A stretch of DNA of 64,000 nucleotides, taken from a bacterium. GTDB taxonomy: Bacteria; Patescibacteriota; Patescibacteriia; Patescibacteriales; UBA12465. Position numbers and translations under genes: made by a program. The stretch covers positions 2,766 through 66,765 of the forward strand of contig JAJZRB010000003.1 of NCBI GenBank assembly GCA_021806615.1, given 5' to 3'. Below, piece after piece: positions 11,087 through 63,403 of the stretch (the stretch's first letter is position 1; the number at the start of each line of letters is the position of its first letter). Below the pieces are notes generated by a model, which did not search any database, had not been told where the DNA came from, and worked only from the letters and a program-made list of their open reading frames with translations.

Positions 11087-11232
11087 AGTCACCTCCCCTC
11101 TCAACTACGGAACGAATTTCAGGTCGCATCCGTAAATTGAAAATAGTTTAATAAAAAATATATAAATAAAAAAATATCTCTCGTTAATAGTATACCATTA
11201 TTCATTTTAGGGCGCAATAGTCGCAGCCCCTT

Positions 11233-12450
11233 TTAGAACTGGCTAGCCAGATTATACATCGGGAGCAGGACCGCGGCGACCATCACGCCGACGCCGAGAC
11301 CCATGATGACCATGATGACCGGCTCCATCAGCTTGCTGAGATTCTCTAACATATTGCTGCTCTCGCGCGAATAAAAACCGGTTATTCTATCCAGGACCGA
11401 ATCTATCTTTCCGGTCTTCTCGCCGACCGCGATCATCTGCGGCACCATTTTCGGTACGTAATTACTGGCTTCAAAGACAGTGGAAAACGGGTTGCCGTCA
11501 TTGATGGAATCCAAAGTGTCAAGGATAAGTTCGCGATAAATAGTATTTCCGACCACGTCCGCTACGATCTCCAGGCTGCGCGTGATCGTGACGCCGCCTT
11601 TCAGGAGCGTGGATAAGGAACGGGAAAAACGCATCAGATAAATATACTGGAACAGGATGCCGAAAATCGGCAGCCGCAATTTCAAGATATCTAGTTGGCG
11701 CTTGCCGTTATAAGTCTTCAGGTACAGGCGCAGGAGGATGGCTAGAATGACGAGGACGATGACGATAAGAATCGCGTAATTCCTTAGGAAGTCCGAGGTG
11801 CCGATGACTATCCGCGTGGAAAGCGGCAGGGTCGCTCCGGTCTCGGTCAGGATAGAAGTCAGATTAGGGATGACATAGACCATCAAGATGATGCCGACGC
11901 CGAATAAGGACGTGATGATGAACATCGGATAGATCATCGCGCCGCGGATCTTGGAATTCATGTCGTAGCTCTTCTCCATCTCGTCCGCCAGATAGCTCAG
12001 GACTTCGTCCAATTTTCCGGAGGTTTCTCCGGAGCGGATGATATTCACGAAAAATTCCGAGAAGACCTTCGGGTATTTGGCGAGCGCGTCGGATAGGAAG
12101 GCGCCGGCATTGACATCATAGGCTACGTCGGAAATCAGGTTTTTCAAAGACAGGTTGTCGGTCTGGTCAACCAGGATGAGCAGCGATTCCACGACCGGGA
12201 CGTTCGCCGAGATCATGACGGAAAACTGCCGGGCGAAAATGACGAGATCCTTGGATTTGATGGGCGCGATCAGGCGGGAAAAACGGCTGAGCGGGCTTTG
12301 CGTCACATCTTCCAGACTCAGGACGTTCAATTCCTTCTTATGCAATTTCAAAACCACTTCGCTTTCGGACAAGCCGACGACGTTACCGCTCTTTTTTTTG
12401 CCGTTCGCGTCTTCCGCGTGGTATTTGAAAATAGGCATATTAGCTTTCAA
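11233..12450 (-). CDS. pilC: Type IV pilus platform protein PilC (GspF family)
   Basis: 405 aa with two GspF-like repeats and three TM segments. Immediately downstream of pilB. Confidence 0.9.
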   Translation of the reverse strand: MKANMPIFKYHAEDANGKKKSGNVVGLSESEVVLKLHKKELNVLSLEDVTQSPLSRFSRLIAPIKSKDLVIFARQFSVMISANVPVVESLLILVDQTDNLSLKNLISDVAYDVNAGAFLSDALAKYPKVFSEFFVNIIRSGETSGKLDEVLSYLADEMEKSYDMNSKIRGAMIYPMFIITSLFGVGIILMVYVIPNLTSILTETGATLPLSTRIVIGTSDFLRNYAILIVIVLVILAILLRLYLKTYNGKRQLDILKLRLPIFGILFQYIYLMRFSRSLSTLLKGGVTITRSLEIVADVVGNTIYRELILDTLDSINDGNPFSTVFEASNYVPKMVPQMIAVGEKTGKIDSVLDRITGFYSRESSNMLENLSKLMEPVIMVIMGLGVGVMVAAVLLPMYNLASQF

Positions 12451-27937: not shown

Positions 27938-28519
27938 TTAAACCATCTGGCGATAAAACTCTAATACTTTAGCCACATCCACTTCTTGCGGCAGATCGCC
28001 TGCGGCCGGCTGTCCTAAAAATTTTCCACCATGATTATCATAAAGCAAGTGCCCGAACATGACTCCGGCTTGCCGATTATTTTCCATGTCCGTTAAGAAC
28101 GCCGGTTTCTTCAAGAGTTTAGCATTAGCGCTGACCGTCTGTCCGGACTTCAGGATATAGGAAGGGATATCAACTTTTTTCCCATCAACTAATATATGGC
28201 CATGGTTCACCAGCTGGCGAGCCCCTCCCCGCGTTTTACTCAGTCCGAGACGGAAGACGATGTTGTCCAGACGGCTTTCCAGCGTCTGTAATAATTCTAC
28301 CGGCAGGTCTCCGCGATGCTCGAAGACTTCGCGCACATAGCGCTTCATCTGGCGCTCCATGACGCCATAAATGAATTTCAACTTCTGCTTTTCTTCCAAA
28401 CGGGCGGCATAATCCGACTTCCGGCGCGGCTTAACCTGCTGGCGGCGGATACTGGCGCTCATAGGCGCAAGGCCGAATTTCTGCTTCTTGCGCAGTTTCG
28501 GTCCGATATATCTACTCAT
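27938..28519 (-). CDS. rpsD: 30S ribosomal protein S4
   Basis: MSRYIGPKLRKKQKFG N-terminus and an S4 RNA-binding domain (RLDNIVFRLGL...ARQLVNHGHILVDGKKV). Confidence 0.9.
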   Translation of the reverse strand: MSRYIGPKLRKKQKFGLAPMSASIRRQQVKPRRKSDYAARLEEKQKLKFIYGVMERQMKRYVREVFEHRGDLPVELLQTLESRLDNIVFRLGLSKTRGGARQLVNHGHILVDGKKVDIPSYILKSGQTVSANAKLLKKPAFLTDMENNRQAGVMFGHLLYDNHGGKFLGQPAAGDLPQEVDVAKVLEFYRQMV

Positions 28520-28644
28520 AAAATTTATGAAATTAATGATTAGTTTATAAAACCAATATTTATAGTACGAAGGCGGCTTAAATTATCTTTAAGCCGGCGC
28601 AACGTGCCATGATAATAACAGAAATAAAAAAATTTTGCTAGTGT

Positions 28645-29082
28645 TCAGCTTAGATCCATTGACAAGAATATTGCTATTTCCCGCGCTTGGTTAGAGTAAT
28701 AACGGTCATTATAACCACATTTACGAAAACCGTTCTTCTTATATAGCTTGAGGACTGGGTTTGAGGACGGCGCCTCGGCTATCAGCGATCTGACCCTTTT
28801 CCCCCGAGCTAAAACTATAAGCCTCTGCACCAATTTATCGGCTAACCCTTGCCGCCGATAGTCCGGATGAACAAAGATATCGATTATCTTGGCCGTATTA
28901 TTCCAGCGGCTCAAATGAAGCCCGGAAAAAGCGATTATTTCCTGGCCGTGTTCTATAACCAGCAACGTATCCTCTCGACTTTCTGCCAACGCCTTAAAAT
29001 CTCGCGCTTCGTGAAAATATTTCTTATTCAAGCGCTTGATCTGGACTAAGTCGGATATCTTGGCTTTCCTGATTTTTATCAT
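28645..29082 (-). CDS. GNAT-family N-acetyltransferase
   Basis: HPDYRRQGLADKL acetyl-CoA-binding motif; 145 aa. Confidence 0.75.
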   Translation of the reverse strand: MIKIRKAKISDLVQIKRLNKKYFHEARDFKALAESREDTLLVIEHGQEIIAFSGLHLSRWNNTAKIIDIFVHPDYRRQGLADKLVQRLIVLARGKRVRSLIAEAPSSNPVLKLYKKNGFRKCGYNDRYYSNQAREIAIFLSMDLS

Positions 29083-29094
29083 ATTATTTATCTT

Positions 29095-29685
29095 TCAGAT
29101 ATTTGCGCCAATGAATTCCTGAAATCTTTTAAGCCCTGAATGGGGATCCTCCCAACAGATAGTAGCCATACCGAGCTCGCTGGCCTCATCAATATTTTCC
29201 GGAGAATCATCCATGAATAAACAATCTTCCGGCTTGACGCCCAACTTCTGCGTCGCTAGCTCATAAATACGCGGATCAGGCTTTCTGACGCCCTCGATGG
29301 CCGAGGATACGAAGACGTCAAAAATATCATCCAGATGATATTTATCTTTAAATTTAGGCAGTGTCAAAGACGTCCCATTATTGACGACAGCCAATTTATA
29401 TCTTTTCCTTATGGCGGGAAGCAGTGCCCAGAGAGGTTCGAACGGTTCATACTTATCAATAATCCGATCTAAGATAAGATTAAATCCATCTTCATTAAGA
29501 TTATATCTTTTAATCGTTTCATTCTTGAATAGCCTATCATCAATTATTTCCCCGATGGCGCGGTCGATTTCATCTATTATCGTATCCTGCTTATAATCAG
29601 CTCGAGAAAAAAGTAAAACGCCCATGAAATCGAAGAGAATAGCTTTAATTTTTTTAGGTTTAGCGGACATATGGCGGATGGTCAA
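29095..29685 (-). CDS. HAD-superfamily hydrolase
   Basis: Motif I AILFDFMGVL, motif III K, motif IV FMDDSPENI. Confidence 0.75.
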   Translation of the reverse strand: MTIRHMSAKPKKIKAILFDFMGVLLFSRADYKQDTIIDEIDRAIGEIIDDRLFKNETIKRYNLNEDGFNLILDRIIDKYEPFEPLWALLPAIRKRYKLAVVNNGTSLTLPKFKDKYHLDDIFDVFVSSAIEGVRKPDPRIYELATQKLGVKPEDCLFMDDSPENIDEASELGMATICWEDPHSGLKRFQEFIGANI

Positions 29686-29809
29686 TATTCCTTGTCATGC
29701 TTCCATCGGCCTAGTCTTATGATCTTCTGGCCTGGATTCATAGTTCGGACAATTATTTTAATCTTTGATTCATTAAATTAAAGCCCCTGGTTGTATTATC
29801 GTCCAATAT

Positions 29810-30550
29810 CTACTTTTTAATTATGCCATATGACGACCAACCCGATCTTTTATTTTTCCCAGCAACAACATTTAAGCCCATCCCTTGCAAATATTTTAAC
29901 GATTCGTCTTCAATCCGACTCACAAGAATTAATTCCTCTTTTCTTTCATCATCAGTCCAATCTTTAGGATTTTTCTGGTGCAACTCTTCATACCTTTTAT
30001 ATTTCTCTTTAATAAAATAAAAAAATAATGGGCTGATCCTAGCCTCTCCTCCGGTTTTAAGCATTCTTAATACTTCCTTTAGAGAAAAATCAAAATCTTC
30101 TTTATTCCTAGAAACAGCCGATATGGCCGGCGGCCCAGCGTGCGCGATTAGCAAATCTATAGAACTGTCCGCTATCTGAGGCACGCCTTGTCTAATATCT
30201 GCCACAATACCCCTTTTTACGTCTGGTCTCTTGGACAATACATAATCCCTCTTATCTACTGACAAAACTTCGCCAGAATCTTTGATAGTGGCCGCTCTTT
30301 CAATTATTTGCGTAGCTGAACCTAAGTCTACAACTTTTTTATTCTTTAGATCATCTAAAGTCAGCCCCAAATCATCAAGCATGTCTGTCGCCATGGTTAT
30401 TATTTCATCATCTGATAAACTATCAATATAATTAGCCATATTTTCCATTTTTTCTCTGATTTCTTCTCTCCGCCTATTCTCATTATTTTGGGACATGTTT
30501 TCTATGTTCATTTTTTTAGTATTATTTTTATTTATTTTAATAATAATCAA
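29810..30550 (-). CDS. Hypothetical protein, possible class I SAM-dependent methyltransferase fold
   Basis: VVDLGSATQ (motif I-like) and LKTGGEARI segments. Very AT-rich gene. Weak call. Confidence 0.35.
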   Translation of the reverse strand: MIIIKINKNNTKKMNIENMSQNNENRRREEIREKMENMANYIDSLSDDEIITMATDMLDDLGLTLDDLKNKKVVDLGSATQIIERAATIKDSGEVLSVDKRDYVLSKRPDVKRGIVADIRQGVPQIADSSIDLLIAHAGPPAISAVSRNKEDFDFSLKEVLRMLKTGGEARISPLFFYFIKEKYKRYEELHQKNPKDWTDDERKEELILVSRIEDESLKYLQGMGLNVVAGKNKRSGWSSYGIIKK

Positions 30551-30589
30551 CTGGCACGAGGCGGAATAGCTTAAAGACGTGAAAAATGG

Positions 30590-31795
30590 CTACTTCAAAT
30601 TTCTTATTAAAATATTCAAACCTTCCTCTAAAAGTTCCGGCGGGATGGAAAGAGGCGGCATAATCTGCATATTATCTTTGCTGCCGACAACCACATGAAG
30701 CCCGTCAGCGAAACAGGCTTTCTGGATTCTAGAACATGTCTCAGCATCTTTGAATCGGGCGCCGATTTCTAAGCCCAGCCCTCGCACATCAACCAATGCT
30801 TCTCCGATATGGGTCTTTAATCTTTCTTTGAGATAATTTCCTTTTTTCTCCGCCATTTCCCAGACCTTGTCTCTCAGATGAATCTGCAAAACCTTCAAGG
30901 ATGCGGCGCAGGCAATCGGAGCCCAGCCGAATGTCGAGACTAAGATAGATTCGGAAAAAGCTTTCTCAAATATTTCTGATTTCCCGACAACCGCCCCGAT
31001 AGCGGCGGCTCCATTGGACATGCCTTTGGCTAAAGCGATCATATCCGGAACAACACCCTCATGCTGTATGCCAAAGAGCTTGCCCGTCCGAGAAAACCCC
31101 GTGCCCACCTCATCAACGATAAGCAACGTTCCATACTTTGCAGCGAGCTCTCGTAGTTTTACCAGAAACCCCGGGTAAGCAACGAGCGTTGAACCCCAAC
31201 CGGTGATAATTCCCGGCTCCGTGATAACGGCGGCGACGTCTTCCTTGGCAAGCATTCCCTCAAGCTCTAAAAGAAATTTCTGCCAATCATCTTCGCTGAT
31301 CTTATCATGAGGAAAGGCGATAGGCGCAATGTCCGGGACTAAAGGCTCTAGCTTCGGATGTGAATTTTTAAGATATCCGATAGCTAAGGTGGCGAATAAC
31401 TGCCCGTGATATTGGGCGTTGAAGCCGATAACTTTGCTTCTACCGGTATAGACGCGAGCGACTTTAATGGCCGCCTCTACAGATTCAGTCCCGCTGGTTT
31501 CTTTAATACAGGCATCCAGCTCTTTCGGCAACGCTCCAGTCAGCGCTTTAGCATACTCCTCTTGGATTGGATCAGAACCCCAAAGAAGCCCTTGTACATT
31601 TTTCTTGGCCTGTTCAACTATCGCGTCGCTGACTTCGGGGTTATTCCAGCCTAGATTAGTTACATTCCAAGCGGATGAAAAATCAATATATCTCTTTCCG
31701 CCTCTATCCCAAATTAAAGAGCCTTCGGCTTTTGAAAGCGGGAGATAATCATATTTGCCCTTAAAATCTCGATAAACGATGCTATTTTCAATCAT
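30590..31795 (-). CDS. Class III pyridoxal-phosphate-dependent aminotransferase
   Basis: LIVDEVGTGFSRTGKLFG and ALAKGMSNG (PLP lysine) motifs; 401 aa. Confidence 0.8.
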   Translation of the reverse strand: MIENSIVYRDFKGKYDYLPLSKAEGSLIWDRGGKRYIDFSSAWNVTNLGWNNPEVSDAIVEQAKKNVQGLLWGSDPIQEEYAKALTGALPKELDACIKETSGTESVEAAIKVARVYTGRSKVIGFNAQYHGQLFATLAIGYLKNSHPKLEPLVPDIAPIAFPHDKISEDDWQKFLLELEGMLAKEDVAAVITEPGIITGWGSTLVAYPGFLVKLRELAAKYGTLLIVDEVGTGFSRTGKLFGIQHEGVVPDMIALAKGMSNGAAAIGAVVGKSEIFEKAFSESILVSTFGWAPIACAASLKVLQIHLRDKVWEMAEKKGNYLKERLKTHIGEALVDVRGLGLEIGARFKDAETCSRIQKACFADGLHVVVGSKDNMQIMPPLSIPPELLEEGLNILIRNLK

Positions 31796-31829
31796 ATTTG
31801 AGTAAATATTACGATACTAAATTATCTTG

Positions 31830-31856
31830 GCGGAGAGGGCGGAACGTAGTTGGAAC
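31830..31856 (-). repeat. Cassette-boundary repeat, tRNA-mimic half only (copy 1)
   Basis: GCGGAGAGGGCGGAACGTAGTTGGAAC, immediately after the HIT gene stop. Confidence 0.7.
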
Positions 31857-31873
31857 AGCAATCATGAATACAC

Positions 31874-32308
31874 TTAATTTAAATTTGTCTTAATAATCTT
31901 GGTAATTTCGTTTAGCTCTGCATCGGGTGACTCATCCCTGCTCCCTGGCCTGTAGAGAAACTTTCGCGGCTCATATTCGTAAACACCGCCATCTCCGGTC
32001 TTTCTTGGCACAACATGTATATGCAAATGGTCCACCGACTGCCCCGCAGTTGTTCCTTCGTTCCAGGCGATATTGAATCCTTCTGCCCCGAAAGACTTAA
32101 TAAGGCTACCTTTTAATTGAACAATGCTGTTTCTAAGCGCGCTTAATTCTTCGTTGGATAATTGATCAATCGTACTAATATGTCTTATCGGGCATATTAG
32201 TACATGCCCAGGAGTTATGGGGATATTGGTCGGAAAAACCATGATTAGGTTGTTTTGAAAGATAATTCTGGACTGTAGAGTTGTTTTATCACAGTATGGG
32301 CAAATCAT
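31874..32308 (-). CDS. HIT-family hydrolase (cassette gene)
   Basis: Histidine triad HLHIHVVPR and an N-terminal CxxC. Start moved to MICPYC (complement 32306-32308) because the track start at 32329 lies inside the intergenic repeat and its -10 box. Confidence 0.8.
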   Translation of the reverse strand: MICPYCDKTTLQSRIIFQNNLIMVFPTNIPITPGHVLICPIRHISTIDQLSNEELSALRNSIVQLKGSLIKSFGAEGFNIAWNEGTTAGQSVDHLHIHVVPRKTGDGGVYEYEPRKFLYRPGSRDESPDAELNEITKIIKTNLN

Positions 32309-32328
32309 ATAGTAATTATAACATTTCA

Positions 32329-32408
32329 TTCCAAAGCGATAAACTCCCTATTAAAAATAGCTCCCATTTAGAGCTATTTGCAAACTTCGTGGGGGGCGCT
32401 CAGAACAC
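32329..32408 (-). repeat. Cassette-boundary composite repeat (copy 2, degenerate tRNA-mimic half)
   Basis: TTCCAAAGCGATAAACTCCCTATTAAAAATAGCTCCCATTTAGAGCTATTTG, followed by CGTGGGGGGCGCTCAGAACAC. Confidence 0.65.
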
Positions 32409-32437
32409 TGCCATACTAAAGCTATGAGGTAAAAATT

Positions 32438-33118
32438 TTAACCCAATCTCCTTTTTTTACGACTAATAGTAATTTCTGTGATTTCTATTTGCTTTGGTAA
32501 TTTTAGCAAATACAAAATTATATCAGCTACATCGATGGGGTCCATCCATTCTTCTGGATTATCTATTTTCAATCCGTAATCCTTTTCATGCATTCTGGTA
32601 TTCATGCCGCCACAATGAACATATATCATTCTGCTTTTTGTTTTTGCTAATTCTAACCCGATATTATAAGAGCCTCCTCTTAGACCGTATTTAGTTGAAG
32701 TGTACGCTAATTGATCATTGAATCCGGCTTTTAAATCCGCCGTTGTGCCGATATTTAATATGTCGGCTTCATTTTTTACTATGTTATCAAATAGAAGAGA
32801 TAATAAATACAATGGAGCAATAGTATTAATTTTAAACGCTCTTTCAAATTTAGAATATGTAATTTCATTAATTTTCTCCATAGCTACAATAGCGGCGCAA
32901 TTAATAATAGCATCGAAATCATTATATTTTTCTTTTATTAAATTACTAGTATTGTTAATATCTTCTTCTATGGATAAGTCGCAAGCAAGATTAACAACGC
33001 CTGGTATGTCGCAAGCAGTCCTGCTTACATTGATCACTTCTATTTTTTCTTTTAAGCACAAACTAGCGATTGCCTTACCGAGTCCGTCGCTAGCTCCTAA
33101 TATAATAATTTTTTTCAT
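32438..33118 (-). CDS. Short-chain dehydrogenase/reductase (cassette gene)
   Basis: KKIIILGASDGLGKA cofactor motif and the YTSTK catalytic YxxxK. Confidence 0.8.
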   Translation of the reverse strand: MKKIIILGASDGLGKAIASLCLKEKIEVINVSRTACDIPGVVNLACDLSIEEDINNTSNLIKEKYNDFDAIINCAAIVAMEKINEITYSKFERAFKINTIAPLYLLSLLFDNIVKNEADILNIGTTADLKAGFNDQLAYTSTKYGLRGGSYNIGLELAKTKSRMIYVHCGGMNTRMHEKDYGLKIDNPEEWMDPIDVADIILYLLKLPKQIEITEITISRKKRRLG

Positions 33119-33154
33119 ATGTTTCTATAGCTATTTTGCTAATATTATAGCATG

Positions 33155-33238
33155 CCGTTTCAAAGCGATAAACTCCCTATTAAAAATAGCCCGTGTTTAG
33201 GGCTATTTGAACACTGCGGAGGGGGCGTAGTTGGAACG
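33155..33238 (-). repeat. Cassette-boundary composite repeat (copy 3, complete)
   Basis: CCGTTTCAAAGCGATAAACTCCCTATTAAAAATAGCCCGTGTTTAGGGCTATTTGAACACTGCGGAGGGGGCGTAGTTGGAACG. Hairpin stem at 33184-33192 / 33200-33208. Confidence 0.8.
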
Positions 33239-33241
33239 ACT

Positions 33242-33988
33242 CTATTTAGTTTGCCCAAAATCCAATAATAATGCTAAATGATCAGAAACTTCATCTGGAA
33301 GAACCTGAAATTTATTTATTTTGATGTCTTTTGATGCAAAGGCATAATCGGCGAAGGGCAATATTTCAAATTTATTATAACTACTGTTTCGAGTCGTTTT
33401 AAACCCACCATCTTTAACTAAATTTTGCAGTCGATTTTCTAATTTTAAAATTGCTTCCGTATTCATATCCAAATTAAAGTCTCCAACTAAAATTTGGGAC
33501 TTCGTGCTACCATTAATAATTTTTAACAAACGATCCGTTTGCAACTCTCTTTCTGGCGTATCTTTTTTGGAATTTCCTGGAATACCATGAAAATTATGAA
33601 TTATTAAATCATTATTTTTCAAATAAACTGATTGAATCACGCGCGGATAGTACTTATCCCCATTAGGCATCGCTAAGTGCTCGGTCTCTTGGGATGTTAA
33701 AATTTGTGCTGATTCTATTTTTTCTACTTCAATATTATTATGGATAAAAGACGCTATTCCAACACCTGGAGCCATTTCTGTAAAATAACCTACAAAATCA
33801 GGCAATATATTTTTTAAATCTTCAAAAAGATTCGTCCTTTCGGCCGCTTCTTCAGCTTGATCTAAATATTTCCCATTTCTTATCTCCTGAAAACAAAAAA
33901 AATCTACATCTTTGGATTGATGTTTTAAGAATTCTTTTAATAATTCAAATTTTATTCCGTTCCAAGCGTTTAAAGAGATTAATTTCAT
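33242..33988 (-). CDS. Endonuclease/exonuclease/phosphatase (EEP) family protein (cassette gene)
   Basis: FFCFQE near the N-terminus, GDFN, and a C-terminal SDH motif. Confidence 0.7.
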   Translation of the reverse strand: MKLISLNAWNGIKFELLKEFLKHQSKDVDFFCFQEIRNGKYLDQAEEAAERTNLFEDLKNILPDFVGYFTEMAPGVGIASFIHNNIEVEKIESAQILTSQETEHLAMPNGDKYYPRVIQSVYLKNNDLIIHNFHGIPGNSKKDTPERELQTDRLLKIINGSTKSQILVGDFNLDMNTEAILKLENRLQNLVKDGGFKTTRNSSYNKFEILPFADYAFASKDIKINKFQVLPDEVSDHLALLLDFGQTK

Positions 33989-34029
33989 ATTTGATATATT
34001 ATTCAGTTTATTCTGATATTAGCACCAAT

Positions 34030-34117
34030 CGTTCCGAAGTTCAATTCTCACTACAAAAAATAGCCCGTGTTTAGGGCTATTGAAAATCCGCGGAGAGAGT
34101 GGGGCGCAGTTGGAACG
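34030..34117 (-). repeat. Cassette-boundary composite repeat (copy 4, complete)
   Basis: CGTTCCGAAG...AAAAATAGCCCGTGTTTAGGGCTATTG...GCGGAGAGAGTGGGGCGCAGTTGGAACG. Confidence 0.8.
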
Positions 34118-34120
34118 ATT

Positions 34121-34567
34121 TTACTTTTGTCCCCAATCAATGAGCTCGGTAAATCTTAGATAAAATCCGAATGGGTCAACCATACGAAAATCTTTCCAAA
34201 TATGGCCATGGTCTTCCAGCTCTTTCAGTTCTCGCACAATATTATCTTTTAAATTATCAGAGGCTAATTTGTAAATACTTTCAATGTTATCAGTTACTAT
34301 GGTAATCTCAGTGGCATACCCACATTTCGTATCTTTGGGAAATTGCTTGAAAAAAGATTGATCATATACCCTTTCATCTCCTCCATAAAAATTTAACATC
34401 GTATTGCCTAGCCCATCTTCCCTGGTCATAGTTAAATAACCCAGGTTTTTTTCATTTAACTTATCATCCATGCTTATTTTGAAACCAAGCTTGGAATAAA
34501 AATTTTTCACTATCTCCAAATCGGGAACATGGAGCTCAATAATTAAATTGTTTTTTATTGGTTTCAT
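34121..34567 (-). CDS. VOC/glyoxalase/bleomycin-resistance-fold protein (cassette gene)
   Basis: 148 aa with a paired beta-alpha-beta-beta-beta pattern (IIELHVPDLEIVKNFYSKLGFKI ... DPFGFYLRF). Confidence 0.55.
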   Translation of the reverse strand: MKPIKNNLIIELHVPDLEIVKNFYSKLGFKISMDDKLNEKNLGYLTMTREDGLGNTMLNFYGGDERVYDQSFFKQFPKDTKCGYATEITIVTDNIESIYKLASDNLKDNIVRELKELEDHGHIWKDFRMVDPFGFYLRFTELIDWGQK

Positions 34568-34634
34568 ACAATACGGGGATTAAGAAAAAACATTTTTGTT
34601 TTTCTTGTTTTCCTTAATGTTTATAAGGCTCAAT

Positions 34635-34684
34635 CCGTTCCAAAGTTTGCGTTTTTGCGGAGAGGGCGGGACGTAGTTGGAGCG
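34635..34684 (-). repeat. Cassette-boundary repeat (copy 5, minimal form without the inner hairpin)
   Basis: CCGTTCCAAAGTTTGCGTTTTTGCGGAGAGGGCGGGACGTAGTTGGAGCG. Confidence 0.75.
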
Positions 34685-34685
34685 C

Positions 34686-35282
34686 TTATTGCTCAATAAT
34701 AACGAAATCGCCCTCCTCTAAAGCATGGATTGGCAAAGATTCATTTCCATATTTCTCCAATTTTTTATAGGCGCCTTCCCAGTCTATAGAGCCTCTAGGG
34801 TCGTCTTGCCCGTACGATGATTTATAATGAGGTATAAACTTAATGGGTAATATTCCTAAGCCATCCATACATTGACGCCAATCACTAGTCCAAAATTGTT
34901 TAACCAAGACATCTGAACCAGCAGAACTACCAGCCACAACTTTATCTTCCCATATTTCTGGTAAATTATACTGCTTTAGCCAATATAATAGTAGCTTATC
35001 GTCTCCACCATGTATTATAATGGCGTCATTATTTTTCATCTGATCAATAAATTTATCCGGAAGAGCCAATTCAAACTTTGGTTTGACGCCTTCATCCATT
35101 GTCTCCAAAAAATGATCTGCGTGCCGAGCAAATTTTTCTTCCCAATGTTCGCGAGGAACCGCAAAATAACACAATAAAATATTGGGTGTTTTACTCAATT
35201 TTTTGACTATTTCCTTATTAAATTTTTTTGCTTTTTCGGGGAAATTTTTTAGTCCGCCAGAATTAAGAATATACTTCGTCAT
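34686..35282 (-). CDS. Peptidase S51 / class I glutamine-amidotransferase-like protein (cassette gene)
   Basis: IIIHGGDDKLLLYWLKQ and AGSSAGSDVL resemble the S51 GGN-x-x-x-L and G-x-SAG motifs. Confidence 0.55.
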   Translation of the reverse strand: MTKYILNSGGLKNFPEKAKKFNKEIVKKLSKTPNILLCYFAVPREHWEEKFARHADHFLETMDEGVKPKFELALPDKFIDQMKNNDAIIIHGGDDKLLLYWLKQYNLPEIWEDKVVAGSSAGSDVLVKQFWTSDWRQCMDGLGILPIKFIPHYKSSYGQDDPRGSIDWEGAYKKLEKYGNESLPIHALEEGDFVIIEQ

Positions 35283-35312
35283 AAATATTAATTTATTTAA
35301 TTATAGCACAAA

Positions 35313-35367
35313 CCGTTCCAAAATGATAAACTCCCTATTAAAAATAGCCCATGCCTAGGGCTATTTT
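35313..35367 (-). repeat. Cassette-boundary repeat (copy 6, hairpin half only)
   Basis: CCGTTCCAAAATGATAAACTCCCTATTAAAAATAGCCCATGCCTAGGGCTATTTTT. The matching tRNA-mimic half lies on the other side of the Fic gene. Confidence 0.75.
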
Positions 35368-35421
35368 TAGTCTAATGTCTTATTATTATAGGCTCTACGC
35401 CAAAAAATTTAAATATTTGCC

Positions 35422-35448
35422 TTAATCGTATCAATATGATACGATTAA
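35422..35448. promoter_or_regulatory. Perfect 12-3-12 palindrome overlapping the first ATG of the Fic ORF (candidate operator)
   Basis: TTAATCGTATCA-ATA-TGATACGATTAA read directly at 35422-35448. Confidence 0.5.
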
Positions 35449-36530
35449 ATCATAATAATGATACGAAAAAAAATATGAAAAAAATAACAAAAAATGAACA
35501 AAATATCCTTAAATTGCTGATCGGCGGAGCTGTTTTAGCATCCTCCGCCATTCATCAGGAGATTATTAAAAATAAAGAAAATCTAGCTTTAATTACCGTT
35601 AAAAGGCTTCTGTCGCAAATGCTTAAGGCTGATTTATTAACGATAACCGGTTCGGGACGTTCCACCAAATACTCGATAAGTACCAGAGGGCGAGTTTTAG
35701 CCGATATCAAGGCACAGGAATATTGCGCCATTGAACCTGATAAAAGAACTGGCTTGCATAATTATAATTTTTCTTTGCTAGCTAAGATGCCCGAAGATAT
35801 TTTTAATCCAGAGGAATTAATGCGGCTGCAAACGGCTACCGCTGAATATCACGAACGGACTCGAGATTTGTCGGCGGTCTTGGCTAAAAAAGAATTAGAA
35901 CGATTGATTATTGAATTGTCCTGGAAATCATCTAAGATTGAAGGCAATACCTATACTCTCTTGGATACGGAAAAATTGATTTTAGAAAATAAAGAAGCGC
36001 CCGGACATGATAAAGCGGAAACGCAGATGATTCTTAACCATAAGGAGGCTTTTGATTATGTACGCCGATACGCCGGACAATTCAAAACCTTGACGCGCAA
36101 AAATCTGGAAGAATTGCATTCTTTGCTGGTAAAAGATTTAGGCGTCCAGTCGGGCTTGCGCCGAAAACCGGTCGGGGTTTTAGGTTCTATTTACCGCCCC
36201 TTGGATAACGGCCAGCAAATCGCCGAAGCGGTCGAAGCTTTAAGCCAAGCGGTCGCTAACATGACTAATCCCTACGCCAAAGCGCTCTTGGCCATTCTGG
36301 GTTTGAGCTATATCCAGCCCTTTGAAGACGGTAACAAACGGACTTCGCGCTTATTGGCCAATGCCCTGCTCTTGGCCCATGGTTGCGCGCCCTTGTCTTA
36401 TCGCAGCGTCGATGAAAATCAATACCGCGAAGCTATGCTGGTATTTTATGAATTGAACTCCTTGATACCTTTCAAGGAAATATTTATCGCTCAATATGAA
36501 TTCGCCGCTAAAAATTACGCGGTAAAATAA
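35436..36530 (+). CDS. Fic-family protein with an N-terminal winged-helix-like region and a degenerate Fic motif
   Basis: Motif QPFEDGNKRTSR at the position of the canonical HPFx(D/E)GNGRxxR. It is the only plus-strand gene in the cassette block. The real start may be the downstream MKKITK. Confidence 0.75.
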   Translation: MIRLNHNNDTKKNMKKITKNEQNILKLLIGGAVLASSAIHQEIIKNKENLALITVKRLLSQMLKADLLTITGSGRSTKYSISTRGRVLADIKAQEYCAIEPDKRTGLHNYNFSLLAKMPEDIFNPEELMRLQTATAEYHERTRDLSAVLAKKELERLIIELSWKSSKIEGNTYTLLDTEKLILENKEAPGHDKAETQMILNHKEAFDYVRRYAGQFKTLTRKNLEELHSLLVKDLGVQSGLRRKPVGVLGSIYRPLDNGQQIAEAVEALSQAVANMTNPYAKALLAILGLSYIQPFEDGNKRTSRLLANALLLAHGCAPLSYRSVDENQYREAMLVFYELNSLIPFKEIFIAQYEFAAKNYAVK

Positions 36531-36607
36531 TACTATCCCCCTTAAGTTCGAATCTGCCAACCGTCGCATATAAAAATAATCCGGCATTCGCTGGATTATT
36601 TTTATTA

Positions 36608-36624
36608 GCGGAGAGGGTGGGATT
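36608..36624 (-). repeat. 17-nt exact copy of the tRNA-Ser(UGA) 3-prime end (copy 7a)
   Basis: GCGGAGAGGGTGGGATT is identical to 61002-61018. It is preceded at about 36580-36603 by the hairpin AATAATCCGG/CTGGATTATT (G-T wobble). Confidence 0.8.
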
Positions 36625-36818
36625 TCCGCCTCATTCGCTCGCCGTCGCTCGCTCATTCGTTGCCCAGAACTTGCGTCCGACCTGCCCCCGGCAGGTCGTC
36701 CGACGCTCGCTGCAATATTCGCCTGCTGGCGAATATCTAGCTCGCTTCAAGTTTGTTCGAATCCCTTCTATCTTCCACGCATACAAAAGAAGCAGTATTT
36801 TATACTGCTTCTTTTATA

Positions 36819-36847
36819 TGCGGAGAGGGTGGGACGTAGTTGGAATG
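36819..36847 (-). repeat. Cassette-boundary repeat, tRNA-mimic half (copy 7b)
   Basis: TGCGGAGAGGGTGGGACGTAGTTGGAATG. The first 16 nt are identical to 61000-61015. Preceded by a 13-bp-stem hairpin at 36785-36815. Confidence 0.8.
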
Positions 36848-36886
36848 GTCTTAAATATTCGGGACTATTATTTTTATAATAAAACA

Positions 36887-37411
36887 TTAGATAATTAACT
36901 CATTCAAATTTTTTCGCTGTCTGGGCTTAGGTTCTTCATCTGAATAACCGCAAGGAATTATTATTATCGGGCGTAAATTTTTTGGCAAAGATAGGACACT
37001 TCTTACATCTTCTTCCACAAAAGATCCCACCCAAACCGAAGCCAATCCTTTGGCGGTAATTGCCAATTGAAGATAGGCGGCGAAAATTGTCGCGTCTTGT
37101 ACGGCATAAAGATCACTACCCCTGGTCTTAAAAACTTTTTCTGATTCCATTTGATCAGCACAAATCACAAAAAGTACTGGGGCACTTAAAACTGATTCTT
37201 GCTTAATAAAACTACGAGTAAAGGTAGCTTCTTTTAACTTTATTTTTCCGTCCTCTGTTTTGACAATTTTTATTTTATAGGCCTGTAAATTGCCGGCCGA
37301 AGGAGCTAGCTGAGCCAAATTTAAAATTTCTCGAATGGTTTCATCGGAAATTTCAGTTGATTTAAACTTTCTAATTGATTGACGATTTGCTAAAACTTGA
37401 TCGAAATCCAT
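36887..37411 (-). CDS. Nitroreductase-family protein (cassette gene)
   Basis: RQSIRKF N-terminal FMN-binding motif and PSAGNLQ; 174 aa. Confidence 0.75.
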   Translation of the reverse strand: MDFDQVLANRQSIRKFKSTEISDETIREILNLAQLAPSAGNLQAYKIKIVKTEDGKIKLKEATFTRSFIKQESVLSAPVLFVICADQMESEKVFKTRGSDLYAVQDATIFAAYLQLAITAKGLASVWVGSFVEEDVRSVLSLPKNLRPIIIIPCGYSDEEPKPRQRKNLNELII

Positions 37412-38454: not shown

Positions 38455-38481
38455 GCGGAGAGTCCGGGACTATATCCGAAC
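38455..38481 (-). repeat. Cassette-boundary repeat, divergent tRNA-mimic half (copy 8)
   Basis: GCGGAGAGTCCGGGACTATATCCGAAC, preceded by the hairpin AAATAAGG/CCTTATTT. Lies just after the stop of the P-type ATPase gene. Confidence 0.55.

Positions 38482-59404: not shown

Positions 59405-59433
<29 letters not shown>
59197..59433 (+). CDS. Hypothetical small protein, candidate recombination directionality factor by position
   Basis: 78-aa ORF overlapping the integrase start by 29 nt. No motif; the call is by position only. Confidence 0.3.
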
Positions 59434-61087
<1,654 letters not shown>

Positions 61088-61196
61088 TATCTGAACCGAC
61101 GGACTTTAATTTTCTAAAAACCACTCTAGCATGTTTTTTGTTAATTTTCAATAAAAATGATAAAATAACAACAAAATAAAGTAAAGGCATAAAAAT

Positions 61197-61907
61197 ATGT
61201 TCAATATCCTTAATCTATTCAAAAATATTCCTGATACCAGTAATGGCAATTCATTGAGCGCCAGCAAGGCGGAGCGCGACGAATTATGCACGACGATAAT
61301 CAATTCTTCGGCCTTGAAAGGCGGTTTCTACCTCTTGATAATACTGTCTACTTTCATCGTAACGGTCGGATTATTGAAAAATAATCTTATTCTGACTATA
61401 GGCGGAATGCTGGTCGCTCCTTTGCTTTCACCGATAATGTCAATCTCCTTATCTATTACTATCTTGAACTTAAGGGTTTTCTTGCGATCAATCCGGATCT
61501 TTATCATCTCGGCCCTGGCTTCCCTGCTCGTCTCTTATATCTTGGGACTAATAGCTAATTTTTCTCTCTCCCGGATAGAATTGATAGACTTAATGAAGGC
61601 TACCGGCCTGACCACGCTCCTAATCCCCATCGCCGCTGGCGCTGCCGCCAGCTTTACCTGGGCCAAGAAGGATTTAAACAGCTCTTTGCCTGGCGTAGCA
61701 ATCACAGTTACCTTATTGCCGCCTCTTACGGTCATGGGGCTAGCTCTGGCCGCCAAAGATCTCTTGATATTCAAAGAAGCCCTCGATGTTTATCTTCTGA
61801 ATGTCGCGGGAATCATTATCGGCAGCTTGGTTATCTTCGTCCTGATGGGATTCTATAAGTCCGCCAAGAAAATAATCGCCCAAGTGGAAGAAGAGGAAAA
61901 GAACTAA
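61197..61907 (+). CDS. DUF389-family integral membrane protein
   Basis: GGMLVAPLLSPIMSISL matches the conserved DUF389 signature as I recall it; multiple TM segments. Confidence 0.55.
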   Translation: MFNILNLFKNIPDTSNGNSLSASKAERDELCTTIINSSALKGGFYLLIILSTFIVTVGLLKNNLILTIGGMLVAPLLSPIMSISLSITILNLRVFLRSIRIFIISALASLLVSYILGLIANFSLSRIELIDLMKATGLTTLLIPIAAGAAASFTWAKKDLNSSLPGVAITVTLLPPLTVMGLALAAKDLLIFKEALDVYLLNVAGIIIGSLVIFVLMGFYKSAKKIIAQVEEEEKN

Positions 61908-61925
61908 TGATAATTCGGATAATAA

Positions 61926-61952
61926 TAAAAACTACCCATTAAGGGTAGTTTT
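61926..61952. terminator. Bidirectional hairpin terminator
   Basis: AAAAACTACCC / GGGTAGTTTTT 11-bp stem with a 5-nt loop, between convergent genes. Confidence 0.6.
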
Positions 61953-61982
61953 TATTATCAATTTTTCTTATTTTCTACGGTA

Positions 61983-62846
61983 TTAGTTGCTGGTCGCGGT
62001 ATCCATGACATTCTCACTGCCATCGTTAATCATTATTTCTCCCGACATCGAGCTAGAACTGTCTGTCTGCGGAGTAGATGTGGCGCTTAAGGCTGGACGG
62101 CAAGACTTGAGGCTATCCTTATAAGTCTTCCAGATCGACTCCTGCGCTAATTTAGCTGTCTTGGCGATTTGGTCGTGCGTATCCTGGAAAGTATTGATGC
62201 AGGCGTCTAAAGCATCGTGCTGATTAGCCGTGGTTTGGATGGCCGCCTGCTGGCAGGTGCTCCGCGTATTGATAGCCGCTTGCAAATCTGTCATGGTTGT
62301 CGCCAATTTCGCGACTAAAGCCTGATCCTTAGTATTAATCGCGGCCGTAACGCAAGCCACTGCATCGCCGCTGACAATAGCCGAGGTGGAAGAAGCGCGG
62401 CCCGGCATATTTTCCTCTTCATTATCGTTATTATTATCTTGGCCATTATCATCTTTCCTTATCCCCCAGAGAGCATTGCCTTTTTCCTGTATTTTCTCGT
62501 ATAAATGGATGAAAGCCGGAGCGGGGATCTTTTCTAAAATCTTTTTGGCTTTATTGACCAGCGCCCCGGGAGATACTTTATCCGTGCTGGTTCCACTTAA
62601 TTCCTGGCTGCTGCCTAGGTTGCCCTGGGCCGCTCCATTATCCTGGCCAAGGCCAGCATTCAGGCGAATGCCATATAAAGCGTTACCGACACGCTTCATC
62701 ACCCTGAATTCCTTGATGTATTCGGGCGATAGGATCTTCTCTAACTCATCGGCTCGTGCCGGCAGAAAAGCGGCAAAAGCGAAAATTAGCGAAGCTAAAA
62801 CTAACAAAGATGTCATTTTTTTCATAATTTTTACCCTAAGGGTCAA
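61983..62846 (-). CDS. Secreted hypothetical protein
   Basis: Signal peptide MKKMTSLLVLASLIFAFAAFLPARA. An internal duplication of a KI..P...I..YE/F.....GNALWGIR-like segment. Confidence 0.45.
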   Translation of the reverse strand: MTLRVKIMKKMTSLLVLASLIFAFAAFLPARADELEKILSPEYIKEFRVMKRVGNALYGIRLNAGLGQDNGAAQGNLGSSQELSGTSTDKVSPGALVNKAKKILEKIPAPAFIHLYEKIQEKGNALWGIRKDDNGQDNNNDNEEENMPGRASSTSAIVSGDAVACVTAAINTKDQALVAKLATTMTDLQAAINTRSTCQQAAIQTTANQHDALDACINTFQDTHDQIAKTAKLAQESIWKTYKDSLKSCRPALSATSTPQTDSSSSMSGEIMINDGSENVMDTATSN

Positions 62847-62876
62847 TTAAAAAAATAAATAAATTATATAAAGGAT

Positions 62877-63290: not shown

Positions 63291-63403
63291 AGCCAGAAAA
63301 AATAAATAATAGTTATGATAAAACAGCTATGATCTTATTATAACAAAATTACGGAGAGTTTTCTACCCATACTCGTTAGAATATTAAAAACGCTAAGAAC
63401 GGT

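Follow-up and report, generated by a model that had tools for sequence, protein, structure and literature searches.

The two copies of a tRNA-Ser(TGA) 3' end found at 36608-36624 and 36819-36834 in the window (the whole stretch of 64,000 nucleotides analyzed here) appear to stem from two separate insertions at the same tRNA gene, one of a 24,180-bp island and an earlier one of a mini-element that would be non-autonomous and carry a site used as a folded single strand. Taken as a whole, we give this reading a probability of roughly 70%. tRNA 3' ends are classic landing sites of islands and prophages, and displaced tRNA fragments found there are usually taken as island borders.

The intact tRNA-Ser(TGA) gene is located on the minus strand at 61000-61087 (ARAGORN; 59 bits in Rfam). 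Exact copies of the 15-mer GCGGAGAGGGTGGGA are present at 36608-36622, 36820-36834 and 61000-61014, and with up to three mismatches allowed there are 9 matches against 0.95 expected, a number reached in none of 100 shuffles. The repeat copies are the reverse complement of the last 16-17 nt of the tRNA-Ser. The first one (36608-36624, minus strand) is a displaced tRNA-Ser 3' end that matches 61000-61016 exactly over 17 nt and spans the discriminator+1, the acceptor 3' strand, the T-stem 3' strand and the AAT of the T-loop; it forms the outer direct repeat of the mini-element. The second one, TGCGGAGAGGGTGGGA (36819-36834, minus strand), is identical to 60999-61014 and constitutes the attL core of the island, the attR core being the last 15 nt of the tRNA-Ser (61000-61014) together with the base at 60999. 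Both exact matches had been described in the original prediction, with 61002-61018 and 61000-61015 as partners; these reference coordinates are 1-2 nt off, and the remainder of the observation is correct.

The end of the island could be located with a metagenome contig, L011, which contains the unoccupied site and reads in order Fic, the 36608 copy, the GC-rich segment, a 14-bp hairpin, an intact tRNA-Ser and DUF389. Positions 1-1736 of L011 are 99.94% identical to 35099-36834 of the window, positions 1717-4722 are 98.4% identical to 60995-64000, and the two alignments overlap by 20 nt at the att core 36819-36834. The contig keeps 36608-36834 whole and is devoid of 36835-61014 alone, joining 36834 to 61015 via one core copy, which is the structure expected of the unoccupied site of a tRNA-integrated island. 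Since 36835-61014 is what L011 lacks, the mobile unit is, judged by this sequence comparison, 24,180 bp long, with the second copy (36819-36834) as its distal att. At the level of the aligned contigs this demonstrates both the island boundary and the presence of the mini-element segment directly behind tRNA-Ser when the island is missing. The segment had been suggested to be chromosomal DNA lying beside tRNA-Ser at unoccupied sites, and this is what is seen in L011.

It had also been suggested that the 36608 copy is the distal att, with the GC-rich segment as the inner end of a unit of about 24.4 kb (36.6-61.0 kb) that moves as one. The 36608 copy is indeed the longer exact match (17 nt), and the contigs of three assemblies end exactly at 36608, with an overlap of approximately 142 nt with a fourth contig. 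However, L011 retains 36608-36834 and loses 36835-61014 alone, which puts the island end at 36819-36834, and the contig ends at 36608 have a counterpart at 36749 in the same sample, the overlap between them being near the assembly k, which fits a repeated body and not an island end. We read these breaks as a second copy of the body with other flanks, and consider a 24.4-kb unit highly improbable. The 36608 copy, which is also present in L011, is probably older and would belong to an earlier insertion much smaller than the island; the anatomy of this left copy is directly visible, and its history as a remnant of such an insertion is what we deduce. A contig search via the DUF389 neighbour gave one 75%-identical MAG alone, without the tRNA. 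No chromosome of this species without the mini-element was found, and the insertion at this tRNA-Ser is therefore deduced from its anatomy and its relatives. The practical consequence is that the best-conserved nearest copy may belong to a smaller resident element, so that island borders drawn from repeats alone can err; the error here would be 212-227 bp and the wrong att copy.

The cargo of the island (36835-61014) is in brief a filamentous prophage, metal-resistance genes and a large serine recombinase; Pfam identifies a nitroreductase, a Bro-N protein, two P-type ATPases, ArsA and a LexA-like repressor, and the filamentous-phage genes comprise Zot and a G2P-type Rep. The recombinase gene (59405-61036, plus strand; domains Resolvase, Recombinase and Zn_ribbon_recom by Pfam and translation) has a reading frame that extends 37 nt into the antisense of tRNA-Ser, and its relatives in L039 and L136 likewise abut a tRNA end. 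Directly after the attL core follows the island-derived P' arm CGTAGTTGGAAT (36835-36846, plus strand), which resembles the TTCGAAC of the tRNA shifted 5 bp outward. In large serine integrases the ZD motif of attB is placed 5 bp nearer to the centre than that of attP (PMC3783163). The right half-site, GGGA-TTCGAAC in attB versus GGGA-CGTAG-TTGGAAT in the island, fits this 5-bp ZD shift; the left half-site has no clear motif. Large serine integrases recombine at a 2-bp crossover, which is predicted here to lie near GCG|GA|GAGG. Excision of the island would produce a circle with the predicted junction ...CCGTCCCTGTCTGCGGAGAGGGTGGGACGTAGTTGGAATGG.... The P arm of the island itself was considered as the site of an inverted T-loop and this was rejected, as AGGTTCGAAC at 60929 encodes the recombinase C-terminal R-F-E and L136 has TTAGAAC.

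The same P' arm is found after the att cores in five other contigs (L044, L051, L039, L100 and L046) and after degenerate copies at 31830, 34090 and 34657 in the window. The last of these, 34657-34683 (plus strand), consists of GCGGAGAGGGCGGGA followed by CGTAGTTGGAGC; similar copies are located at 34090-34116 and 31830-31856, and an internal one at 38455-38481. The mismatches of the att copies grow with the distance from the tRNA (0, 0, 1, 2, 2), and we read the degenerate copies as probable relics of earlier insertions at the same tRNA.

The GC content is 0.589 in 36625-36770 compared to 0.391 in 36835-60999 and 0.386 in 28600-36607 (59% versus 39%), in agreement with the original prediction of a segment that is GC-richer than its surroundings and dense in hairpins. 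Folded as the minus strand the segment has a z-score of -6.8, folded as the plus strand one of -7.25; none of 200 shuffles folds as well. The perfect hairpin with a CCC loop, CGACCTGCC-CCC-GGCAGGTCG, was recovered at 36678-36698, as was the forward T-loop-like motif GTTCGAATCCC at 36755-36765 (plus strand). A second hairpin at 36715-36736, ATATTCGCC-TGCT-GGCGAATAT, has a loop of 4 nt (TGCT) where a TGC loop had been proposed, and the terminator-like hairpin at 36785-36815, AAAAGAAGCAGTAT-TTT-ATACTGCTTCTTTT, has an A-run and a T-run on its flanks and contains 14 pairs in place of the 13 bp previously assigned to its stem. Two mechanical ORFs overlap the segment, 36351-36656 (minus strand) and 36617-36898 (plus strand, GTG start, 93 aa), and neither appears credible; the 93-aa ORF crosses the hairpins and the att copy.

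From the order in L011, where the sequence of the 36785-36815 hairpin is followed by GTAT and then by the intact tRNA-Ser, this hairpin is evidently the former terminator of tRNA-Ser, parted from the tRNA by insertion of the island. A simple terminator scan makes no call here, presumably because the T-run sits within the stem. Just outside the first tRNA-end copy, sequence and fold reveal another, AT-rich hairpin, AAAAATAATCCGGC-ATTC-GCTGGATTATTTTT (36572-36603), which is unchanged in L011 and also closes the Fic gene; it would be the original tRNA-Ser terminator from before the arrival of the mini-element. The tRNA-Ser(gct) gene of the same genome has a plain terminator, no body and no T-arm copy.

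The T-loop-like motif and a tRNA acceptor-like start could suggest that the segment is a decayed tRNA, as had been proposed, or a tmRNA fragment. However, neither ARAGORN nor Rfam (at the gathering score or with E up to 10) finds a tRNA or tmRNA in 36500-36900, a search of the window copy against Rfam 15 gives hairpin noise alone with all scores far under the gathering scores, and no 5' T-stem strand precedes the T-loop copy. An integron attC in a cassette array might likewise come to mind, as the adjoining genes are single, on the same strand and parted by imperfect palindromes. Against this, the ends read TTCCAAC...TTCGAAC on the cassette strand, are not inverse, and by eye do not fit RYYYAAC...GTTRRRY; the repeats bear the arm of a serine-recombinase island, and no IntI-type tyrosine integrase is found among the Pfam-scanned part of the ORFs of 7.5-61 kb. 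We attach next to no weight to any of these tRNA, tmRNA or attC identities.

The anatomy of the segment instead points to a mini-element, a non-coding insert of approximately 210 bp (36625-36836 in the empty site) that would have rebuilt the tRNA end. Its order is a GC-rich folded body, a tRNA-sense copy of the T-loop and 3' T-stem, a spacer, the terminator hairpin and the replacement tRNA end, the latter being a copy of the last 17 nt of the tRNA. The body (36617-36769, plus strand) is matched by a covariance model with 166.6 bits (E 6e-36). Its closing helix pairs 36619-24 with 36760-65, and a long-range helix between 36668-73 and 36748-53 encloses the hairpins 36678-98 and 36715-36. RNAalifold on the homologues predicts 41 pairs, 22 of which have double-sided changes; none of 500 shuffles reaches this covariation, and slid controls give 3-9 double-sided pairs. 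A structured element had been one of the original suggestions, and the homology near tRNA-Ser and the covariance support on which its survival was made to depend are both found. On the strand opposite to the tRNA gene, GTTCGAATCCCTT (36755-36767, plus strand) repeats G53, the T-loop and the 3' strand of the T-stem in tRNA sense; its predicted pairing partner is either 36619-24 or the T-arm region in the tRNA-end copy next to it. In the window this T-arm copy reads CCCTT, where tRNA-Ser(TGA) has CCCAC. No recombinase is encoded in or next to the mini-element. Since its inner arm is without the TTGGAAC motif of the island P' arm, the resident serine recombinase appears unlikely to move it.

Homologues of the insert with 71-94% identity are present behind tRNA-Ser, Cys, Gly, Ala and Glu genes and also in att arrays, and shorter relatives are found behind Leu, Gln, Val and Asn genes. 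Covariance-model matches comprise three tandem bodies behind tRNA-Glu and shorter forms behind Leu, Ser(cga) and Glu. The common layout comprises a repeat of 17-22 nt from the end of the local tRNA, a body that folds, the T-loop of the local tRNA in inverted copy and a terminator hairpin, and it is mainly this shared architecture that links the short and long forms. The equivalents of the 36608 copy in the relatives are 17-22 nt repeats of each one's own tRNA. At 12 of the 14 tRNA-linked loci such a repeat of the local tRNA is accompanied by a sense T-arm copy of 11-14 nt matching the local tRNA, and the mean match of the T-arm copy over all 14 loci is 11.1 nt compared to 6.2 nt for non-cognate pairs. 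The original prediction had noticed the T-loop-like motif, and missed both its matching of the neighbouring tRNA in relatives and the occurrence of the element behind many different tRNA genes. Donor inheritance alone fails to explain a T-arm copy that tracks each new tRNA when the bodies are nearly identical. Among 120 metagenome loci with the 19-mer hairpin of the body, 31 have it 13-360 nt downstream of a tRNA, in the same orientation in 30 of these 31 and with 14 isoacceptors represented; as the metagenome relatives were all collected via one 19-mer, the invariance of the hairpin is an artefact of the collection. The near-identical tRNA-Gly loci L097, L025 and L062 differ in unit number and body type. 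Across the array in L062 ARAGORN called an odd permuted tmRNA.

These relatives bear on whether the segment could be an inert scar, made of att arms that a decayed island left behind and that by themselves neither function nor move. It is placed in an array of degenerate att relics (31830, 34090, 34657), it contains no gene or recombinase, and 36546-36575 resembles the last codons of a lost serine recombinase gene. A scar would decay, however, and the homologues hold their fold via compensatory changes; moreover the long form is found behind at least 5 tRNA species, there are tandem units with different bodies, and copies also occur in chromosomal flanks with housekeeping neighbours alone. We therefore regard an inert scar as unlikely.

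A somewhat different possibility is that the segment is primarily a small RNA gene, for instance with a product that pairs with the neighbouring tRNA 3' end, in which case the tRNA linkage would reflect function. The covarying GC-rich fold ends in a plus-strand terminator-like hairpin, the plus strand bears 17 nt antisense to the tRNA 3' end, and 10 G-U compared to 6 A-C are counted when the closing helix is set aside, a slight lean towards the plus strand. On the other hand no conserved promoter is seen by eye upstream of the segment copies, a consensus scan of the window gives matches at chance level alone, no Rfam family matches, and the body of most copies is preceded, at a distance of 0-25 nt, by a terminator hairpin. 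Insertions are suggested by the direct repeats of tRNA ends, by the tandem units and by near-identical loci that differ in copy number. It is rather unlikely that an RNA product is the primary role, and the small RNA and mobile-element readings are not exclusive of each other.

Searches for a carrier or a partner were negative within their scope. ORF clustering around all 120 hairpin loci gave no shared recombinase, only synteny of related contigs and spurious ORFs that span the repeat, and no larger integrative parent carrying the body was found, the inner arm being different from the P' arm of the serine-recombinase islands. A scan of viral contigs for the attL 26-mer and the 19-mer hairpin gave no matches, and nothing was found by blastn in a plasmid collection (segment and short-form relative) or in a phage collection (segment). 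Rfam returned tRNAs alone on the loci of seven relatives. In the literature, no paper with the hairpin sequence turned up in a full-text search, and a keyword search gave nothing relevant; a Bradyrhizobium REP paper is unrelated. Collectively, the mini-element and its relatives make up an apparently undescribed family of small folded non-coding elements at tRNA 3' ends, in convergent orientation to the tRNA genes.

The mini-element would move as a non-autonomous integrative element, entering the tRNA at its 3' end through Campbell-type, site-specific recombination inside the repeat of 17-22 nt, with a recombinase supplied in trans. The conserved base-pairing would act in a single-stranded form, either DNA or RNA, and the inverted T-arm copy would pair with the tRNA-end copy so that the recombination site takes the form of a hairpin consisting of duplex, bubble and duplex. 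When excised, the mini-element is predicted to be a circle of 212 nt joining ...GGGTGGGATT to TCCGCCTCATTCG; this hypothetical circle (long form) folds with -87.4 kcal/mol, a z-score of about -8 and 66% of its bases paired.

Other routes and identities were rejected. Insertion of the body into the T-loop with a direct target duplication conflicts with the non-palindromic T-loops (Ala, TTCAAGT), which reveal an inverted orientation of the inner copy. Copying of a primer-binding site from the mature tRNA does not fit, as the repeat follows the gene sequence and not CCA where the two differ. A retron ncRNA was dismissed since the window copy has no neighbouring reverse transcriptase; that of L100 lies within the next island and on the opposite strand. 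Bridge RNA, omega RNA and a group II intron were discarded for want of a partner gene, for the wrong size or for misfitting flanking repeats.

The resident element is in any case not junk, as its conserved fold is met again, in unrelated hosts, behind many tRNA species. Provided that it moves, it would be a tRNA-targeting element of very small size and without a protein product, its target-tracking arms would point to an undescribed route of recombination or copying, and annotation would repeatedly derive false pseudo-tRNA, tmRNA and att calls from it. More tentatively, and with considerable doubt, the family may represent a widespread non-coding mobile class in distant bacteria (hosts with 36-70% GC) that homes to tRNA genes at their T-loop and 3' end and rebuilds the tRNA end, with both direct and inverted copies of the target T-arm. 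Should this be true, it would imply target-copying or folded single-strand integration, neither of which is described for tRNA-targeting elements.

Compared with known systems, the 24.18-kb unit resembles the Islander-type islands by having an intact tRNA, a displaced 16-nt copy of its 3' end, a recombinase gene inside the unit near the tRNA and an empty site, and the 17-nt copy of the mini-element likewise runs from the middle of the T-loop to the tRNA end. They differ in that the enzyme of the island is a large serine recombinase and not the usual tyrosine integrase, and in that the mini-element is approximately 210 bp and encodes nothing. The domain set of the island recombinase agrees with the A118/LI integrase model (PMC3783163), as does the tRNA-side motif 5 bp further out in the island arm, judged from the one half-site compared. 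Unlike the sites of large serine integrases, the 16-nt identity is far above what the enzyme needs, presumably since it rebuilds the tRNA end.

Cis-mobilizable elements (CIMEs) are att-flanked stretches with no recombinase of their own that stay behind, or are mobilised, at an integration hot spot; they derive from ICEs by deletion and occur at a single site. As in tandem accretion and CIMEs, the att array decays outward from the tRNA, and the mini-element, which contains no recombinase, is bracketed by att-type copies (17 nt at 36608 and 16 nt at 36819) with no credible ORF between them. In contrast to CIMEs, it has a covarying fold, many tRNA sites and an inverted copy of the target T-arm.

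The attP(+) of CTX phage and integron attC resemble the mini-element in geometry alone, i.e. in an imperfect hairpin with two inverted site copies paired around a central bubble; the folded site of the mini-element is modelled as a duplex of 11-13 bp, a bubble of about 11/11-15 nt and a hairpin. They also share tandem units and an inverted site copy approximately 70-90 nt inside one element end, whereas the mini-element has neither a dif-like nor an attC consensus. Sites of this kind work only when folded from one strand, and replication resolves the exchange of that strand. By this analogy of predicted folds, the site of the mini-element may be used in single-stranded form.

Finally, the mini-element is similar to MITEs and REP/BIME sequences in being small, non-coding, hairpin-rich and multicopy, with inverted ends and often located 3' of transcription units. 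Its inverted ends, however, come from the target tRNA and not from a transposon end; the arms differ by locus and copy the local T-arm, with no parent transposon found in the plasmid and phage collections, and the flanking repeat is 17-22 nt of tRNA and not a short duplication, in a fixed orientation at tRNA 3' ends.

It is clear from an unoccupied site where the island ends. A search for contigs encoding exactly the Fic protein led to L011 (ENA ERZ27237541), in which Fic, its hairpin, the tRNA-Ser end copy of 36608, an identical GC-rich segment, a 14-bp hairpin, GTAT, an intact tRNA-Ser(TGA) and the DUF389 gene found at 61197 in the window follow one another. By megablast, L011 1-1736 corresponds to window 35099-36834 with one mismatch, and L011 1717-4722 to window 60995-64000. 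Since L011 joins both flanks without the stretch between them, the inserted unit is 36835-61014, 24,180 bp. The distal att site of the island is the second copy (36819-36834), the hairpin at 36785-36815 is the terminator-like hairpin of tRNA-Ser itself, moved 24 kb off, and the GC-rich segment is resident DNA. This bears out the alternative, raised in the original prediction, that the segment is original chromosomal sequence next to the tRNA, since it adjoins tRNA-Ser in L011, while the integrative unit of 36.6-61.0 kb also proposed there had to be abandoned, as L011 keeps the 36608 copy and the segment and lacks 36835-61014. Another contig, L009, carries at 11056-12048 Fic, the same element, the hairpin and a tRNA-Ser whose anticodon is CGA, and continues into DNA of approximately 65% GC with ribosomal protein L21. 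Either this contig is an assembly chimera, joined at the tRNA end and element common to both parts, or two tRNA-Ser loci have truly been rearranged.

The tRNA-Ser(tga) gene lies on the minus strand at 61000-61087 (ARAGORN; Rfam 59 bits). The reverse complement of its final 15 nt, GCGGAGAGGGTGGGA on the plus strand, is present exactly at 36608, 36820 and 61000, and with up to three mismatches it has nine matches in the window versus 0.95 expected. The 17-mer 36608-36624 equals 61000-61016 and the 16-mer 36819-36834 equals 60999-61014; the repeat copies first predicted are thus real and otherwise correctly described, except that their reference coordinates missed by 1-2 nt. All three hairpins, and also the forward GTTCGAATCCC, were read from the sequence just where they had been placed. 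GC content is 0.589 in 36625-36770 versus 0.39 on either side, and both strands fold far better than shuffles (z -6.8 and -7.25).

Degenerate tRNA-Ser end copies at 31830-31856, 34090-34116 and 34657-34683 are each followed by an island arm resembling CGTAGTTGGAAC, an extension that is not tRNA sequence and is common to the copies at 36820, 34657, 34090 and 31830. The mismatches of the copies to the tRNA rise with distance (0, 0, 1, 2, 2), a graded decay of the kind that repeated insertion at one tRNA would leave. Left of the GC-rich segment, single minus-strand genes, with Fic as the sole plus-strand exception, are interspersed with these copies as far as rpsD (27938-28519), and the copies set apart groups of one to three small genes (HIT, SDR and EEP; a 148-aa hypothetical; S51 peptidase and Fic). 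The arrangement looks like a stack of decayed serine-recombinase islands, with a superficial likeness to an integron cassette array. The site at 34657, compact and symmetric, is attP-like (CGTTCCAA-N33-TTGGAGCG). At 36546-36575, AAGTTCGAATCTGCCAACCGTCGCATATAA reads KFESANRRI*, similar to the recombinase C-terminal ...RFELAN..RR..., and may represent the final codons of the lost recombinase gene of an older, Fic-containing unit.

The island encodes a large serine recombinase (59405-61036; Resolvase, Recombinase and Zn_ribbon_recom domains) whose frame enters the tRNA. Leftward from it lie filamentous-phage genes (G2P-type Rep, Zot), a LexA-like repressor, ArsA and two P-type ATPases, and a Bro-N protein with a nitroreductase; the phage module also includes a 699-aa protein without Pfam match, and the arsenic/heavy-metal cargo a DsbA-like and a cysteine desulfurase-like protein. 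It is unusual for an inovirus to be combined with a large serine recombinase. An att-like copy with a hairpin ahead of it (38455-38481, GCGGAGAGTCCGGGA-CTATA-TCCGAAC), placed between the genes for the Bro-N protein and a P-type ATPase, suggests that the island is itself composite.

The recombination sites read ...TTTTGTATGCGGAGAGGGTGGGA-TTCGAACC (attB), ...TTTTATATGCGGAGAGGGTGGGA-CGTAGTTGGAATGG (attL) and ...CCCTGTCTGCGGAGAGGGTGGGA-TTCGAACC (attR). The island arm resembles the tRNA arm with 5 bp added ahead of TTSGAAY, and the longer arm recurs at the att cores of the relatives L044, L051, L039, L100 and L046. In large serine integrases the ZD motif is at 16-24 in attP versus 11-19 in attB, a 5-bp shift (PMC3783163). 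Judged from one half-site, the difference between the two arms would agree with this shift, which would put the crossover near the discriminator end of the tRNA. The recombinase frame runs on across the att core, enters sequence antisense to the tRNA (60999-61036) and ends ...RRGWDSNPRYP*, while the tail predicted for the excised form is ...RRGWDVVGMVLNIRDYYFYNKTLDN*, so integration alters the recombinase C-terminus. Relatives of the recombinase also end inside a tRNA, one in L039 (reverse strand, approximately 2786-2830; tRNA-Ser again) and one, with 56% identity, in the viral contig L136 (4560-4640) at a different, putative tRNA.

A metagenome scan with the 19-mer of the central, CCC-loop hairpin of the body gave at least 120 loci, and window 36540-36870 was compared by blastn with the 120 loci listed. 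Among these, homologues of the whole segment were L044 (84% over 264 nt), L100, L114 (92%), L051, L097/L025, L062/L030, L099, L046 and L039, all from AT-rich hosts (33-41% GC). The element lies immediately downstream of, and convergent with, tRNAs for Cys (L114), Gly (L097, L062), Ala (L099) and Glu (L024, with three tandem bodies). Read antisense to the tRNA, one layout recurs throughout: first the final 17-22 nt of the local tRNA in reverse complement, ending mid T-loop; then the body; next G53, T-loop and 3' T-stem strand, copied in tRNA sense; and last a spacer of approximately 10-15 nt and a terminator hairpin, followed by the tRNA. The sense copy follows the local tRNA sequence, being GTTCGAATCCC for Ser, GTTCGACTCCC for Cys, GTTCGATTCCCCT for Gly, GTTCAAGTCCCTT for Ala, GTTCGACTCCCC for Glu, GTTCGAGTCCCAC for Leu and TTCGAATCCAGGT for Gln, and matches it over 11-14 nt in 12 of 14 loci (mean of all 14, 11.1 nt versus 6.2 nt for non-cognate pairs). 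Direct target duplication was ruled out as its source, because the Ala loop is non-palindromic and the copy there is inverted relative to the gene. The control tRNA-Ser(gct) in L011 has a plain terminator only, with body and T-arm copy absent.

Pairing is clearly conserved in this mini-element. In nine distinct copies aligned by MAFFT and folded by RNAalifold, the two tRNA-derived arms pair as a closing helix, followed by a small first hairpin and by a long-range helix (AACTTG/CAAGTT in the window versus GGTTGG/CCAACC, AGATGG/CCATCT and GGGCAG/CTGCCC in other copies) that encloses the CCC-loop hairpin and a second hairpin. Double-sided changes occur in 22 of 41 pairs with 89% of cells paired; none of 500 shuffles reached this covariation, and sliding the partners by 1-3 columns reduced double-sided pairs to 3-9. 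In the divergent bodies L062b and L024 the central stem differs and the CCC loop is kept. On the plus strand, the cells outside the closing helix include 10 G-U versus 6 A-C. A covariance model from the nine copies finds a single copy in the window (36617-36769, 166.6 bits).

Recurrence at many tRNAs is equally clear. The 19-mer lies 13-360 nt downstream of a tRNA 3' end in 31 of the 120 loci listed, many of which are orthologous, with the CCC-loop strand antisense to the tRNA in 30 of these 31; they cover 14 isoacceptors and host GC from 36 to 70%. As the loci were collected through the 19-mer, its own invariance carries no meaning. Identifiable neighbour genes of the tRNA-linked loci are housekeeping genes (DnaX, UvrD, SOD and others), and none of them encodes a recombinase. 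A short body of approximately 66 nt (L088, L081, L098 and L016, for example) hardly differs between its copies behind genes for Ser(cga), Glu, Leu and Val, with a local tRNA repeat of 13-22 nt and in most cases a matched inverted T-arm copy, weak in L016 (Val). Common architecture and modest model scores of 31-41 bits (hairpin alone approximately 20) suggest kinship of short and long forms. In seven GC-rich metagenome loci (L022, L041, L042, L078, L107, L110, L133) the hairpin sits within a partial tRNA-Ser-like 5' half, ordered acceptor and D-arm, insert, anticodon arm, directly upstream of a complete tRNA-Ser(tga), another kind of tRNA linkage for this hairpin. In L023, L054, L056, L132 and similar loci of GC-rich hosts genes for tRNA-Gly(tcc), Glu, Thr(cgt) or Met are followed at once by a hairpin whose tip is the 19-mer and whose lower stem is an inverted copy of the final 5-8 nt of the tRNA; L023 has CCGCCTAGCATTCGCTCGC, near to CCGCCTCATTCGCTCGCC of the window.

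Several loci carry signs of recent change. Near-identical tRNA-Gly loci differ in their units: L097 has one, L025 has two or more that are identical, and L062/L030 have two whose bodies differ and whose arm-and-hairpin module is the same. L114 has a second element with another body behind its tRNA-Glu. Nitroreductase-side contigs end exactly at 36608, the first base of the copy, in three independent MEGAHIT assemblies (L002, L003, L006), and the Fic-side contig L010, from the same sample as one of these, ends at 36749. The breaks overlap by 142 nt, which nearly equals the assembler k of 141, suggesting a second exact copy of 36608-36749 with other flanks in those communities. Over the tandem units of L062 (8292-8993) ARAGORN calls an implausible 700-nt permuted tmRNA behind tRNA-Gly; mini-elements can mislead annotation into calling a tmRNA or pseudo-tRNA where there is none. 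In L100, the island abutting the mini-element begins with a gene (2564-3391) for a 275-aa reverse transcriptase (RVT_1), which lies on the other strand than the CCC loop and is probably cargo, e.g. a retron or defence gene.

As to its history, the unit of approximately 210 bp would have entered tRNA-Ser by recombination inside the 17-nt repeat, pushing out the old tRNA end (36608-36624) and old terminator (36572-36603) and bringing the present tRNA end and hairpin, and the rebuilt tRNA would afterwards have been used by the 24-kb island. Plain inheritance from the donor does not explain how an inverted copy can match every new tRNA when the bodies hardly differ. The inverted copy in the window has CCCTT, the T-stem of tRNA-Ser(GCT), as in L044, versus CCCAC in the adjacent tRNA-Ser(TGA), which hints at a jump between isoacceptors. 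Since the mini-element encodes nothing, a recombinase would have to act in trans; the serine recombinase of the island is unlikely to be the one, because the inner arm of the mini-element, TCCGCCTCATTCG, lacks the TTGGAAC motif of the island. Folded as a single strand, the mini-element would pair its inverted T-arm copy with the tRNA-end copy over 9-13 bp. The acceptor part would stand opposite a spacer that is about as long and not complementary to it, and the tip would be closed by the terminator stem, giving a duplex, bubble, duplex hairpin; a hypothetical 212-nt circle folds at -87.4 kcal/mol (z approximately -8). Because this predicted geometry is like that of CTX-phage attP(+) and integron attC, we propose a folded single-strand site as the possible substrate.

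By the tests applied, the GC-rich segment is no tRNA or tmRNA, Rfam family, attC or classical MITE. A description of the mini-element was found neither in Rfam nor in the searched literature, an absence that is weak evidence, and we regard a truly distinct class of tRNA-homing non-coding elements as doubtful, at roughly three chances in ten. The island belongs to a known kind, the tRNA-integrated elements with a large serine recombinase, and is ordinary among them. The mini-element falls under the bare definition of an att-flanked element without recombinase (CIME-like), from which it differs in that its fold is conserved, it targets many tRNAs and its inverted arm matches the target.
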